64,000 nt of DNA from Candidatus Latescibacterota bacterium (GCA_965221775.1 CBDCSU010000005.1:441216-505215); one strand, 5' to 3'; shown: positions 51,033 through 55,556, counted from the first letter of the stretch. Notes: a model not told the origin generated them from the sequence alone. Made by a program: numbers and translations.

Positions 51033-51056
51033 GGGCGCCACCACATCGCGCGGCTT

Positions 51057-51305
51057 CTACCCCCCGCCCGCACTCGCGGGCAATTCGGCTCTCCAGCCAG
51101 GTGCAGCGAATGAGTAGCTGGGTAGGTCGGCAGCACCAGACCCGTAACCCCGACAAGCGCCAGATCGAACCTCAGCCCTGATGGCAGGGGCCAGTCCCGC
51201 AGCATCGGCTGTGCTCCGATGCCGGGTCGAAGATCTCCGGACCGAGTCCGCAGGATCCCATGGCAAGGCACCGGACATCCTCCGTCCGATTGGCCTCAAG
51301 CGGCG
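51057..51305 (-). pseudogene. relic of the 3' end of an acyltransferase-3 paralog
   Basis: The minus-strand translation IGAQPMLRDWPLPSGLRFDLALVGVTGLVL...PRVRAGG aligns with the C-terminus of the intact gene at 55557..57221 (IIGAQFAVRDWPLPSAVKFVLVLVAVTGFLL...PRVRAGG*). The C-run before the stop is one C shorter (6 vs 7), which puts the TAG out of frame. Everything 5' of the relic is missing. Confidence 0.65.
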
Positions 51306-51312
51306 ACCGATC

Positions 51313-51376
51313 CAACTAAGATTTTAGTTGACATGCGCCGCGGCGCCGGGTATGTTCTCAACTAAACCCTTAGTTG
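51313..51376 (+). promoter_or_regulatory. sigma70-like promoter flanked by two identical-arm palindromic operators (putative BlaI-family autoregulation site)
   Basis: The two palindromes are CAACTAA-GATT-TTAGTTG (51313-51330) and CAACTAA-ACCC-TTAGTTG (51359-51376). The -35 TTGACA lies at 51328-51333, followed by a 17-nt spacer and the -10 TATGTT at 51351-51356. AGGAG lies at 51379-51383, 7 nt before ATG 51391. Confidence 0.6.
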
Positions 51377-51390
51377 ATAGGAGCAGCCGC

Positions 51391-51798
51391 ATGGCTCAAA
51401 GAGGGGGACCCGACAAGAGGCTGACCCCGCTCGAGACACTGATCATGAACGTCCTCTGGGACGATTCGCCCGCCGCCGTCCGCCAAGTTCAGCAGCGGCT
51501 CGAGGCGGTCAGGCCCATGGCCTACAACACCGTCCTGACCATGATGCGCATTCTGCGCGAGAAGGGCTTCCTGGTGTCGGAGCGCGAGGGCCGGTCCGAC
51601 CTCTACCGACCGGTGGTGACGCGCGAGGACATGGCGCGGCGGTCCCTGGGCGACGTCATGGACTCCTTCTTCTCCGGCTCGGCCGAGGCGCTGGTCAGCC
51701 AGCTGCTGGACGGCCAGTCCCTCACCGAGGAGGAGCTGAGATCGATCCGCGCCGAGCTGGACCGGGCCCTCCAGCGCAGAAGGGGGAAGCGGCGATGA
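51391..51798 (+). CDS. BlaI/MecI/CopY family transcriptional repressor
   Basis: A winged-helix region reads LTPLETLIMNVLWD...AYNTVLTMMRILREKGFL...R..Y.P. The stop overlaps the M56 gene start (ATGA). Confidence 0.85.
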   Translation: MAQRGGPDKRLTPLETLIMNVLWDDSPAAVRQVQQRLEAVRPMAYNTVLTMMRILREKGFLVSEREGRSDLYRPVVTREDMARRSLGDVMDSFFSGSAEALVSQLLDGQSLTEEELRSIRAELDRALQRRRGKRR

Positions 51799-53627
51799 GC
51801 GCGGCCCTGAACGGGCTGGGCAACCAGCTCTTCGCCTGGCTGGGCCCGCTGAGCATCGAGCTGGTGGGGCTGGCGGTCCTGGTGCTGGCGGCTTGCCGTC
51901 TGGTGAAGTCGCCGGCCCTGCGCCACCTGTTGTGGCTGGCCGTGCTCGTCAAGCCGATCGCCGCCGTTGTGGTCAGCTCCCCCTATACGGTATTCGCGCC
52001 CCTGGCGGCGTTCGTGCAGCCCGGCTGGGATGCCCTCCCTGCCTGGAGGGTTGAGCACCTGACGCTGACGCCCCTGGCAGCGGCTCCCGCGGCCTTCGCC
52101 ACAAGCAGCGTGCCGTTTACCCCTGCCGCCTGGGGAGCGCTCCTGTGGCTCGTGGGCGCGACGTTGCTCATCGGGAGGACCCTGGCCGGCTTCGGCATCC
52201 TCCGGCGACTCCGGCGGCAGGCGCATGTGCAACGAGAGGGTCCGCTCTTCGAGGCTCTGCGGCGGGCGCGCGCGTCCCTCGACTGTCACCCCGGGGTCGA
52301 GGTGGCCACCTCTCCCTCCATCCGCTCGCCCATGGTCCTCGGCATCCTCAGACCGCTCATCGTCGTTCCCGCCGATCTCGTGCAGAGACTGCGGGGTGAC
52401 GAGTTGACCCTGGTCCTCATGCACGAACTGGCCCACGTGCGCCGCTGCGACAATCTCACATTGCTGCTGCAGAGACTGGTCACGGCCGTCCTGTTCTTCC
52501 ACCCCGCCCTGTGGCTGTGCGGCCGCATGCTGCGGCGCGAAGCCGAGCAGGCCTGCGACGATCTCGTGGTCGGCGTCACCGCCCGCCCGGAAGCGTATGC
52601 GCGCGGCCTCACCTTAGTCGCCGAAGAGGCGGCTCACTCCAACCCACGAACCAGGAGAGTCCCCATGATGAGCACCTTTGCCGCCACCGAGTCCCATCTC
52701 TCGCGGAGGATCCGCCGGACTCTGCACGGTGGTGCGCGCCGGATGGGAACGCGGGCGCGCGTGCTTGCGGTGGTACTGCTGTTCCCTCTGGCCGCCGTGA
52801 CCCTGCCCTCGTACGGCGCTGCAGACAACTGGGTGGCGGCCGAGACGGCTTCGGCTATCGCGGCCGACTCCAGTGCTGCTGCCACCGGCCGGGACGAAGT
52901 CGTGACGCTCGAGGAACTCACCGACAGAATGGCCAAGGGCATACGAATGGTGGAGGAAACTCACACCGAGGGAGTGCGCCGTCGCATTGTGGCGGCGCCC
53001 GAGAGCGGGGTGAAGGTGGTGATCCAGGAGCTGGATGTGGCGGGCAGCCGCAAGTCGGACCCAGATGAAGCAGTCGCTCGGGCGATCGAGCAGATAGAGG
53101 ATCTCCAGTCAGAAGCTATCGGGAGAATCGCAGCCCAAGCCAACGAACTGACCGGAGAGGAGTCGTTGCACAGGATCCTTGAAGCCCTCGATGAGAGTCG
53201 TATCATGCGAGAGGCGGTGGCCACCGACCCGGATGAATGGTCGGATGAGTTAAAGGCACAGCTGCTCGCCCTCAAGCCGGACAGTACCATCGAGGAGATC
53301 GTCGAGTTTGTGCGCGGCGTTCGCAGTGGAACCGTGCTGTATGGGTACTCCGTGCGCGGAGAGGATCGCATGGAACCCGAGGGTGTCTTCCTCATTATGG
53401 TGGATCAGGACGGCAACATGAGGCTGAACGGCAAACCCGTGACCTTCGCGAACCTTGGAGACGAACTGGGGAACCAGAGAAGCAAGCTGGACACCACCTC
53501 CATGATCATCATTCGGAGCGCCGAGGGGGTAGCCCGCGGGCGGATCGTCGAGATCATGGACATCGCACGCCAAGCGGGGCTTGTCGATCAGGTCCTTGTC
53601 GATCAGATCCTTGCCACGGAGCCATAG
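51795..53627 (+). CDS. M56 (BlaR1-like) family metallopeptidase/signal transducer with ExbD-like C-terminal domain
   Basis: The HExxH motif lies in LVLMHELAHVRRCDN, followed by FFHPALW. There are 4 N-terminal TM segments and one later TM. The C-terminal 80 aa (from nt 53382), FLIMVDQDGNMRLNGKPV...IIIRSAEGVARGRIVEIMDIARQAGL, resemble an ExbD/TolR periplasmic domain. Confidence 0.8.
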   Translation: MSAALNGLGNQLFAWLGPLSIELVGLAVLVLAACRLVKSPALRHLLWLAVLVKPIAAVVVSSPYTVFAPLAAFVQPGWDALPAWRVEHLTLTPLAAAPAAFATSSVPFTPAAWGALLWLVGATLLIGRTLAGFGILRRLRRQAHVQREGPLFEALRRARASLDCHPGVEVATSPSIRSPMVLGILRPLIVVPADLVQRLRGDELTLVLMHELAHVRRCDNLTLLLQRLVTAVLFFHPALWLCGRMLRREAEQACDDLVVGVTARPEAYARGLTLVAEEAAHSNPRTRRVPMMSTFAATESHLSRRIRRTLHGGARRMGTRARVLAVVLLFPLAAVTLPSYGAADNWVAAETASAIAADSSAAATGRDEVVTLEELTDRMAKGIRMVEETHTEGVRRRIVAAPESGVKVVIQELDVAGSRKSDPDEAVARAIEQIEDLQSEAIGRIAAQANELTGEESLHRILEALDESRIMREAVATDPDEWSDELKAQLLALKPDSTIEEIVEFVRGVRSGTVLYGYSVRGEDRMEPEGVFLIMVDQDGNMRLNGKPVTFANLGDELGNQRSKLDTTSMIIIRSAEGVARGRIVEIMDIARQAGLVDQVLVDQILATEP

Positions 53628-53700
53628 CCGATAGGCCGCGGCTATAGAGCCGGCCGGAGTTGGGCCGAACCGAAACCGGAAAGTGGACGAGGAGACGGTG

Positions 53701-55548
53701 ATGAGTTGGACCCTGAACGAACTGGGACATCAGCTCCTCGGCTGGTTGGTTCCGTTGAGCATCGAGCTGGCGGCACTGGCGGTCCTGGTGCTGGCCGCCG
53801 GCCGCCTGCTGCCGATCCGGTCGCCGGCCTTGCGCCACCTCCTGTGGCTGGCCGTGCTCGTCAAGCCGCTCGTCTCCCTGCTGGTCAACTCGCCCTGCAC
53901 GGTATACGCGCCGCTGGTGCCCCTGGCAGAGCCCGCCTCCCCCGTCGCGGATCTGCATGTCGAACACTTGGTGGTACAGGCCGCGGCCTCCCCCCCCATC
54001 GCCGAGAGCAGCCCGCGTCTTACGGCAGTCGGCTGGGGCATGGTGCTCTGGCTGGTTGGCGCGGCCCTGCTCACCGGACGGATCCTGATCGGCCACCGCG
54101 TCCTTCGTCGCCTGCGGCAGGAGGCCCATCTGCAGCGGGGCGGTCCGCTCTTCGCGGCCCTGCGGCAGGCGCGCGCGTCCCTCGACTGTCACCCCGGGGT
54201 CGAGGTGGCCACCTCTCCCTCCATCCGCTCGCCCATGGTCCTCGGCATCCTCAGACCGCTCATCGTCGTTCCCGCCGATCTCGTGCAGAGACTGCGCGGT
54301 GACGAGTTGACCCTGGTCCTCATGCACGAGCTGGCCCACGTGCGCCGCTGCGACAACCTCACATTGCTGCTGCAGAGACTGATCACGGCCGTCCTGTTCT
54401 TCCACCCAGCCCTGTGGCTGTGCGGCCGCATGTTGCGGCGCGAAGCCGAACAGGCCTGCGACGATCTCGTGGTATCCGCCGCCGGCCGCGCGGAAGCCTA
54501 TGCGCGGGGACTCACCCTGGTCGCCGAAGGGGCCCACTCAAACCCGCCAGCGAGGAGAGTCCCCATGTCGAGCACCCTTGCCGCCACCGAATCCGACCTC
54601 TCGCAGAGGATCCGCCGGACGCTGGACGGTGGTGCATCCCGGATGGGCCCGCGGGCGCGTTTGCTGGCGGTGGTACTGCTATCCCCTCTGGCCGCCGTGA
54701 CCCTGCCTGCTTACGGCGTTGCCGACAGCGCCACGGACGAAGTGACGGCAGCCGCTGGAGTCGCGTCTGCTTCCGTTTCTGCTGACGGAATCCTGGGAGA
54801 GGAGGCGGCCGCCGATTCGGAGGAGCAGCGGAGAACGGTGCTTGTGGAACCCGGACCCGACAGCACCACCGAGTGGACCGTGGAGGCGATGGAACGCCGC
54901 ATCCGGGAGTCGATCCGGCGCCGCATTCAGGAGGCGACCGATAGCGGTGAACCTGCTCCGGAGCTATGGCTCAGAATCCTCGATAACCACAGCATGATCA
55001 GGGATATGGCCGAGGCGGGACTCAAGTGCCGGGAATGCGCTCGCATCAAGCGGGGTACGGCTCAAAGGGACCTCCGGAACCTGTTTCTCGTGGTGTATCG
55101 AGACGGCAGCATGAAGCTGAACGAGAAGCCAGTGACCCTCGGAACCCTCGGAGACGAGTTGCAGGCGAGGAGACAACTGGTCGTAAACAACAGGATGGTC
55201 ATCCAGCACGACGGACGCGCCCCGGAGGGACAGGTCGTTCAAGTCATGGATGTCATACGCCAGGCAGGGCTGGTATCGCTCGGCTATCCGGTCATCGCCA
55301 CCGAAGAGGGGCACGGGACCTTGCGGGAGGCGCTGGCGACCGATCCGGAGGAATGGACGGAAGAGTTGAAGGACCGGGTTCTCGCGCTCCAACCTGGCAG
55401 TACTATCGAGGAGGTCTCCGACCTGGTGCGGCACCGGAGGAACTGGCTCAACCCGGGAACGACCGATCCTGACAGGTGGTCCGACGAACCTTCCAGCACC
55501 GTCGACCAGGACTGTCGAGGGTGTCCGCAAGAGACGGCAACAGACTAG
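53701..55548 (+). CDS. M56 (BlaR1-like) family metallopeptidase/signal transducer, tandem paralog, ExbD-like domain plus C-terminal extension
   Basis: ATG 53701 (MSWTLNELG...) aligns with the start of the first paralog. The HELAH core is identical. The ExbD-like segment FLVVYRDGSMKLNEKPV...VIQHDGRAPEGQVVQVMDVIRQAGL lies at about 55078-55290. Confidence 0.8.
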   Translation: MSWTLNELGHQLLGWLVPLSIELAALAVLVLAAGRLLPIRSPALRHLLWLAVLVKPLVSLLVNSPCTVYAPLVPLAEPASPVADLHVEHLVVQAAASPPIAESSPRLTAVGWGMVLWLVGAALLTGRILIGHRVLRRLRQEAHLQRGGPLFAALRQARASLDCHPGVEVATSPSIRSPMVLGILRPLIVVPADLVQRLRGDELTLVLMHELAHVRRCDNLTLLLQRLITAVLFFHPALWLCGRMLRREAEQACDDLVVSAAGRAEAYARGLTLVAEGAHSNPPARRVPMSSTLAATESDLSQRIRRTLDGGASRMGPRARLLAVVLLSPLAAVTLPAYGVADSATDEVTAAAGVASASVSADGILGEEAAADSEEQRRTVLVEPGPDSTTEWTVEAMERRIRESIRRRIQEATDSGEPAPELWLRILDNHSMIRDMAEAGLKCRECARIKRGTAQRDLRNLFLVVYRDGSMKLNEKPVTLGTLGDELQARRQLVVNNRMVIQHDGRAPEGQVVQVMDVIRQAGLVSLGYPVIATEEGHGTLREALATDPEEWTEELKDRVLALQPGSTIEEVSDLVRHRRNWLNPGTTDPDRWSDEPSSTVDQDCRGCPQETATD

Positions 55549-55556
55549 GAGCCGCT

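Follow-up and report, generated by a model that had tools for sequence, protein, structure and literature searches.

A stretch of 64,000 nucleotides (nt) from Candidatus Latescibacterota bacterium (GCA_965221775.1 CBDCSU010000005.1:441216-505215), hereafter the window, was found to carry at positions 51391-55548, counted from its first letter on the plus strand, one operon with the gene order blaI-M56-M56. The first gene (51391-51798) encodes a BlaI-family repressor of 135 amino acids (aa), starts with an ATG at 51391 behind GGAG and matches Pfam Penicillinase_R with an E value of 1.8e-30 and 106 bits (cut-off, 22.6); its stop codon and the start codon of M56 copy 1 overlap as ATGA (4 nt). Copy 1 (51795-53627, 610 aa) is predicted to consist of three transmembrane (TM) helices, a cytoplasmic zinc-protease core, a fourth helix (TM4) and a periplasmic tail, and its residues 19-306 correspond to Pfam Peptidase_M56 (PF05569, E = 2e-38). 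After a gap of 73 nt follows M56 copy 2 (53701-55548, 615 aa), which likely starts with the ATG at 53701 behind AGGAG, in a reading frame open from 53683. Copy 2 matched Peptidase_M56 with an E value of 1.4e-37 and is built like copy 1, the first 347 residues being 74% identical between them. The genome contains two M56 genes in total, both in this operon. It was also noticed that in three relatives (loci L078, L079 and L084) the second M56 gene is split or truncated (380+240 aa, 264 aa and 196 aa), whereas both genes are whole here.

The zinc motif HELAH is located at residues 210-214 of copy 1 (52422-52436) and at 54325-54339 in copy 2, and the third-ligand Glu of copy 1 lies within REAEQACDD, about 40 residues downstream of HELAH. 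In both copies, HELAH and a downstream E-x-x-C-D aligned with the HEYAH and the Glu of the BlaR1 structure 8EXP, showing that the predicted zinc-protease core is intact in both proteins. Hydropathy analysis revealed four hydrophobic segments per protein at BlaR1-like positions, with TM4 at residues 323-341 of copy 1 (52761-52817; hydropathy of 1.98 over 19 residues, no Asp) and at residues 322-340 of copy 2. TM4 is preceded in both copies by an Arg-rich stretch (RRIRR...RRMGTRAR in copy 1), and by the positive-inside rule such a patch would place the tail outside the cytoplasm. Both tails, which are acidic, are therefore predicted from hydropathy and this rule to be extracytoplasmic, probably periplasmic. 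An earlier reading of the same DNA, made from the sequence alone (the sequence-only reading), had proposed two tandem M56 proteins with HExxH, an extra TM helix and an extracytoplasmic tail, and this description is borne out by the Pfam matches, the HELAH motifs, the four hydrophobic segments and the Arg patch, the location of the tails being a prediction.

In BlaR1 and MecR1, such a tail holds the penicillin-binding sensor, and the sequence-only reading had noted ExbD/TolR-like domains here instead of a known sensor domain. In agreement with this, neither protein and neither tail matched any penicillin-binding or transpeptidase family of Pfam; the NCBIfam model blaR1_generic reached 92 bits against a cut-off of 400 and covered the M56 part only, and the NCBIfam BlaR1 and MecR1 models scored far under their cut-offs. 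TonB_C gave no match in either M56 protein (E up to 1) or in either tail (E up to 0.1). TolR/ExbD-like periplasmic domains were located instead, at residues 524-604 of copy 1 (53364-53606, ending at ATEP) and at residues 462-545 of copy 2, counted from 53683 (55066-55317). Against Pfam ExbD (PF02472; gathering score, 25.4 bits), the whole proteins scored 26.4 and 29.2 bits and the isolated tails 28.7 and 31.0 bits for copy 1 and copy 2, respectively, so that both PF05569 and PF02472 were matched in both proteins. The ExbD matches spanned residues 526-598 (copy 1) and 469-533 (copy 2), and the profile positions covered, about 49-121 of 128, represent the periplasmic part only. The domain of copy 2 is the more diverged, having VYRDG in place of VDQDG and a long branch in the domain tree described below.

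The fold of the copy 1 tail was then examined in an AlphaFold model of residues 466-610, built with an alignment of 35 related domains (mean predicted local distance difference test score, pLDDT, of 70.6), which has a three-helix unit followed by a beta-beta-beta-alpha-beta-alpha-beta domain. The top five Foldseek matches of this model were all ExbD periplasmic domains and the sixth was TolR. Comparison with ExbD structures 8P9R, 8VGD and 8VGC gave Z scores of 10.5-10.9 with a root-mean-square deviation (rmsd) of 1.7-1.9 Å over 72-75 residues, and VIA-align returned Z 10.9 for 8P9R (rmsd 1.9 Å, 74 residues), 10.4 for TolR 5BY4 and 9.9 for 8PEK, compared with 6.5 for the best unrelated chain. 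The N-terminal TM helix of the stator and its proton-relay Asp were not copied: TM4 lacks Asp, whereas the free TolR-like protein of this genome has an Asp in its TM region. The assignment of the tails as ExbD/TolR periplasmic domains, first made in the sequence-only reading, is thus confirmed by profile, by fold (copy 1, Z 10-11 on superposition) and by pairwise identity to a resident TolR-like protein, the likeness going well beyond what chance would produce.

That resident protein is one of seven products of ordinary ExbD/TolR genes in the genome. By BLASTP, the copy 1 tail was 57% identical over 84 aa (E = 3e-26) and the copy 2 tail 49% identical over 81 aa (E = 5e-21) to a 135-aa protein encoded at G000:C5:284384-284758, whereas identities to the other six ExbD/TolR proteins were 24-30%. 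With 68.7 bits for NCBIfam tolR and 49 bits for ExbD_1, the 135-aa protein is best described, by its profile scores, as TolR-like. Its gene belongs to an operon on the minus strand (G000:C5, about 282960-291540; locus L086, 6964-15540) in the order PorV/PorQ-like outer-membrane protein, 1097-aa TPR protein with YbgF/CpoB-like repeats, TolQ-like channel, TolR-like subunit and DUF4159 membrane protein, with a CBM9-like protein and a lipoprotein in addition. This operon has the composition of a TolQR-type motor, with TolA/TonB, TolB and Pal not adjoining. No MotA_ExbB gene was found in the blaI-M56-M56 cassette or its flanks, the seven stator genes of the genome being located elsewhere.

The kinship is also visible at the C-terminal ends, which read ATEPQRGK in the free proteins, ATEP in copy 1 and ATEPQP in the fused copies of relatives, and in relatives the fused domain shares up to 88% identity with the TolR-like protein encoded by the same genome. 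A maximum-likelihood tree calculated from 59 domains placed the fused ones in a single group (support 93/84), next to or inside the set of TolR-like orthologues, and left the remaining ExbD paralogues outside; the 81 columns of the alignment are too few to fix the exact nesting of the fused group. Taken together, the identities and the tree show that a single TolR-like gene of this lineage was the source of the tail domain. The fused copies differ by 0.05-0.17 at nonsynonymous sites versus 0.3-0.6 at synonymous sites, and the free TolR-like orthologues by 0.006 or less at nonsynonymous sites; the fused domains evolve faster than the free gene, yet under purifying selection (ratio of nonsynonymous to synonymous difference, pN/pS, well below 1). 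All fused copies have replaced a His present without exception in the free TolR-like proteins, LNH having become LND, LNN or LNG. It was considered whether the fused domain had recently undergone gene conversion with the motor gene, as low synonymous divergence in one genus had hinted; this was rejected, as same-genome and cross-genome pS were alike (0.32-0.58). Paralogue pairs among the fused domains showed pS similar to that of motor/fused pairs, and shared codon usage is the simpler reading of the low divergence.

Examination of the tails revealed a second building block, here called the A module, of about 40 residues with three short predicted helices. In copy 1 it precedes the ExbD-like domain (53205-53327, residues 471-511, ATDPDEWSDELK...STIEE) and is predicted as a three-helix unit with pLDDT of 77-91, and in copy 2 it follows that domain (55321-55443, residues 547-587), with 59% identity to the copy 1 module over 41 aa and a partial third module (TDPDRWSDE) after it. 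The A module family had no match in Pfam or in the Atlas; related A-module repeat proteins gave only sub-threshold, SHOCT-like matches. The same module (ATDPDEWSDELK...STIEE) occurs up to six times in proteins having no M56 domain (P0133, P0140, P0153 and P0163), and it may represent an undescribed periplasmic helical repeat.

Beyond TM4 the orthologues are mosaics of A modules (one to four) and ExbD-like domains (zero to three). As in a real TolR, the first ExbD-like domain of most relatives begins about 15 residues past TM4, and many tails end in an FlgD_ig/CHU_C-like beta-sandwich with the terminus TILVR. This end was seen in the longer orthologues (e.g. L076 8434-10737 and 12747-14696) and in many homologue clusters; its TILVR terminus resembles a type IX secretion sorting signal, which makes no obvious sense on a protein anchored in the inner membrane. 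Five orthologues (L016, L017, L026, L028 and L030) have no ExbD-like domain. The last of these, at L030 751-1581 (minus strand) in another class of the phylum, has an M56 core that is 56% identical and, at its end, a weak sub-threshold match to TonB_C (19.7 bits; cut-off, 24.6), which hints that members of one M56 orthogroup have exchanged end domains derived from the Ton/Tol machinery. Periplasmic domains of the ExbD/TolR type, often as a tandem pair, were also observed on three other carriers (P0223, P0184 and P0165), of which one combines sigma-70 region 4 with a single TM helix, one has Sel1 repeats and one has thioredoxin-like repeats. From these architectures, the ExbD/TolR periplasmic domain looks like a reusable periplasmic module that would serve on signalling proteins.

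Upstream of blaI, two copies of the perfect palindrome CAACTAA-N4-TTAGTTG were found, O1 at 51313-51330 and O2 at 51359-51376, both on the plus strand. The right arm of O1 provides the first bases of a -35 hexamer (TTGACA, 51328-51333), the -10 hexamer (TATGTT, 51351-51356) follows 17 nt after the -35, and O2 lies just 3′ of the -10; the promoter was assigned by consensus only. The half-site CAACTAA differs from the staphylococcal box. The layout of operator, promoter and operator is nearly identical in three genera despite a G+C content ranging from 57% to 70%, the relatives having TATGTT, TATACT or TATAAT as the -10 at the same place. A pattern search of six genomes, this one and those of five relatives, found perfect operators only as the O1/O2 pair. 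No further operator with one mismatch or fewer was found in this genome, sites with three mismatches numbered 6 versus 22 for the reversed control, and the five relatives contributed only three single sites with one mismatch. As far as such a search can tell, which would miss weaker BlaI sites, the regulatory loop appears to be closed on itself. Among 11 loci compared, a blaI homologue lies directly 5′ of M56 in 10, and no other neighbour is conserved; the flanks differ by genus, with PhyH, epimerase, efflux and sulfatase genes in one and acyltransferase and LVIVD genes in the genus of the present operon.

How widespread the fusion is was assessed in a collection of 5.8 billion proteins, in which, of the 120 top-ranking homologue clusters, about 110 have both PF05569 and PF02472 as precomputed assignments, many of them together with PF13860 (FlgD_ig). 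The clusters having both Pfam domains exceed 100 and are mostly from Gemmatimonadota, with few from Latescibacterota; two ESM-Atlas clusters hint at Bacteroidota members and are a lead only. Some of the Gemmatimonadota proteins, from metagenome-assembled genomes, are labelled 'biopolymer transporter ExbD' (by NCBI) or 'M48 family metalloprotease', and an IMG label, 'beta-lactamase regulating signal transducer with metallopeptidase domain/biopolymer transport protein ExbD', names both halves. Within the Gemmatimonadota, the phylum to which the analysis assigned the operon, an M56 relative is present in 133 of 168 genomes; orthologues with E below 1e-100, counted as close, belong to four or five genera, and 23 of 30 loci fetched have an ExbD-like domain; there is also a second, smaller M56-ExbD(x2) subfamily in Latescibacterota, whose M56 part is about 35% identical. 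A hidden Markov model of the domain, which finds positive controls, was applied to 80 M56 loci of other phyla, among them Acidobacteriota and Planctomycetota, and detected no ExbD-like domain in any of them, and the architecture is lineage-restricted rather than universal.

A survey (2026) of about 15,000 InterPro M56 proteins counted 254 architectures, nine of them with 100 or more entries, TonB_C being the second commonest and true BlaR, with about 6%, ranking third; none of the nine includes ExbD, a term that appears nowhere in that paper (PMC13492132). Among the papers searched, none was found to describe an M56-ExbD fusion. The sequence-only reading had not been aware of a described fusion, and this holds for the papers searched, but not for the databases, in which the combination is frequent and already annotated automatically within the lineage; the condition under which that reading would have given up its claim, a common and annotated domain combination, thus largely applies there. 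Outside the lineage, the combination was absent from the 80 loci and from the nine common architectures. The M56-ExbD fusion is thus real and unstudied, but neither rare in public data nor unlabelled, and it deserves less weight than was first hoped because the architecture is frequent there and labelled automatically. What is new is that the fused domain is a close paralogue of one resident TolR-like protein, that the stator helix and its Asp were not copied, that the tails are modular and that the twin operator occurs only at the promoter of the operon itself.

Comparison with characterized systems places these proteins as follows. 1) As in BlaR1/MecR1 with BlaI/MecI of Staphylococcus aureus and Bacillus licheniformis (8EXP-8EXT), there is a winged-helix repressor and an M56 protease with HExxH and a downstream Glu, with four TM helices and an extracytoplasmic C-terminal domain after TM4 (both predicted here from hydropathy), and palindromic operators at the promoter with autoregulation; unlike in those systems, a TolR/ExbD periplasmic domain and helical modules replace the penicillin-binding sensor, two protease genes lie in tandem, and no resistance gene is under the operator. 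2) The M56-TonB_C proteins, such as TonB1 (BT0813) and TonB10 (BT3898) of Bacteroides thetaiotaomicron, likewise join an M56 core to a periplasmic end borrowed from the Ton/Tol machinery; that such proteins are common, as the sequence-only reading had stated, is documented, and they are uncharacterised and suspected of signalling (PMC10350073, PMC13492132). The borrowed part here, however, is the stator periplasmic domain (PF02472) and not the TonB C-terminal domain (PF03544), so that the expected contacts differ. 3) The tails share the periplasmic alpha/beta fold and a recognizable sequence with the ExbD/TolR stators (E. coli ExbD 8P9R, 8PEK and 8VGC; TolR 5BY4), but have neither the N-terminal TM helix with its conserved Asp nor an adjacent ExbB/TolQ gene, and a domain hung on a protease in this way cannot be a motor subunit. 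4) C. difficile CenIR also has an M56 protease beside a BlaI-type repressor and no transpeptidase domain (PMC13492132), whereas CenR is without a recognizable C-terminal domain and the tail here is a traceable domain from a diderm envelope motor.

On balance we consider it somewhat better than an even chance that the operon encodes a non-canonical BlaIR envelope switch, in which a TolR-type periplasmic module on an M56 protease provides the input. The class to which such a switch would belong, M56 proteins with non-penicillin C-terminal domains that mostly lie beside a BlaI gene, is documented (PMC13492132), and its features, namely M56, a linked BlaI gene and a non-transpeptidase C-terminal region, are all present here. 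The periplasmic domains of ExbD and TolR are dynamic homodimers to which the TonB D-box binds by strand recruitment, and they touch peptidoglycan transiently (PMC10771500, PMC10907165). By analogy, the tail domain would act as the input module by dimerizing, touching peptidoglycan or capturing a partner peptide by strand addition, and this contact would change with the state of the envelope or cell wall or with that of the related motor. The change would be relayed through TM4 to the cytoplasmic zinc protease, which would cleave or inactivate BlaI and so de-repress the operon. Since BlaR1 is a dimer, the two M56 copies may act as homodimers or as a heterodimer, and since the operator lies only at the operon's own promoter, the visible output would be more BlaI and more M56-TolR-like protein. 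We infer these steps from the BlaR1 paradigm and from the behaviour of ExbD/TolR domains. The sequence-only reading had ventured a link to the Ton/Tol machinery or to peptidoglycan, and this suggestion has become more specific in that a donor motor can now be named.

Several points weigh against such a switch. A sensor circuit in which the sole promoter with an operator is that of the operon itself, and no output gene can be seen, is strange; even closely related genomes differ widely in the tails, with the numbers of ExbD-like domains and A modules given above and sometimes an FlgD_ig-like end; and second M56 copies are often broken in relatives. The absence of the ExbD-like domain from some orthologues implies that it is dispensable for the role of the M56 core, and the loss of the LNH His in all fused copies may mean that their partner specificity differs from that of the free TolR-like protein. 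Moreover, the signal, the cleavage of BlaI and the regulon would be assigned by analogy for every member of the family.

It is conceivable, though on the whole unlikely, that the ExbD/TolR-like domain only docks or anchors the protein, as a peptidoglycan tether or by pairing of the tails, and that the input comes from the A modules, the acidic helical region or a membrane or cytoplasmic cue. The domain comes and goes in the mosaic tails while the A module is nearly always there, its presence on unrelated carriers (the sigma region-4 single-pass, Sel1 and thioredoxin-like-repeat proteins) would fit a reusable docking unit, and peptidoglycan binding is known for TolR and ExbD domains (PMC10771500). 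However, the domain is under clear purifying selection and in most relatives stands directly after TM4, which is the position of the BlaR1 sensor; sensing and docking are, in addition, compatible with each other.

We give a rather low probability to a stricter version of the envelope switch, in which the tail would mimic the plug and peptidoglycan-binding domain of one TolQR-like motor and pair with its TolR-like subunit or with the same partner peptide, the switch thereby reading the state of the motor and feeding back by self-amplification. If true, a stator complex would be connected directly to transcription via regulated proteolysis. It is slightly harder still to credit that the M56-TolR-like proteins are the output as well, de-repression raising the level of a membrane-anchored mimic whose pairing or competition with the TolQR-like motor of the cell, or with the partner of that motor, would adjust an envelope function. 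The restriction of the operator to the operon's own promoter in six genomes would suit such a role, as would the derivation of the domain from the TolR-like subunit of one motor, to which it is still 57-88% identical, and the fact that ExbD domains function as dimers (PMC10771500). On the other hand, contact with the motor is conjecture and the invariant His of the motor subunit is replaced in every fused copy, synonymous divergence gives no sign of ongoing homogenization with the motor gene, and weaker BlaI sites would have escaped the pattern search. Complex prediction for the copy 1 ExbD-like domain with the resident TolR-like periplasmic domain gave a score of 0.02, which says nothing either way.

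It is very improbable that an old fusion is in decay here, the tails being remnants without importance and the pair a redundant duplicate heading for loss: the broken second copies in L078, L079 and L084 and the long branch of the copy 2 domain would agree with decay, but both genes are full length here with intact catalytic motifs, both domains pass the Pfam threshold with pN/pS well below 1, and the architecture has been kept in different genera and is also found in another phylum. Genuine beta-lactam sensing in the manner of BlaR1/MecR1, which the M56 core and the adjacent BlaI-family repressor might suggest, was rejected at the domain level and has a negligible chance of being correct, with no transpeptidase or penicillin-binding domain, BlaR1/MecR1 models far below their cut-offs, and no beta-lactamase or penicillin-binding protein gene within the operon or adjoining it.

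The envelope switch favoured here bears on the wider question of what M56 'BlaR-like' proteins sense, since only about 6% of them sense beta-lactams (PMC13492132). Its useful features are that a donor gene can be named for the input domain, that the biochemistry of this type of domain is known and that the promoter and operators are sharply defined, which together make it a testable hypothesis that a BlaI switch is controlled by the state of the envelope or of a motor; a good experimental entry point is offered by the traceable donor gene together with the clean operator. More generally, the analysis shows that in Gemmatimonadota and allied phyla periplasmic domains of ExbD/TolR have been reused on signalling proteins, namely on M56 proteases and on a single-pass protein with sigma region 4.

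Some further features of the locus were noticed. A 7-bp inverted repeat (ATAGCCG-N8-CGGCTAT, 53624-53645) overlaps the stop codon of copy 1 and extends into the 73-nt gap, with no T-run after it, and it could form an mRNA hairpin between the two cistrons. On the left flank, a relic at 51056-51221 (minus-strand sense) is 72% identical to 55556-55725, the 3′ end of an acyltransferase-3 gene, and the intact gene (55557-57221) adjoins the right flank of the cassette, indicating that the cassette is bracketed by an old partial duplication. In a relative of the same genus (L079), left-hand synteny is not kept, whereas right-hand synteny is, comprising the acyltransferase, the LVIVD protein and two more genes. 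Finally, the two M56 genes share a near-identical block in the catalytic core, in which 299 of 306 nt of copy 1 (52265-52570, residues 157-259) are the same as 54168-54473 of copy 2, the identity extending to synonymous sites, whereas the rest of the N-terminal halves is about 82% identical; because of this difference, gene conversion between the tandem copies has likely taken place over this block.

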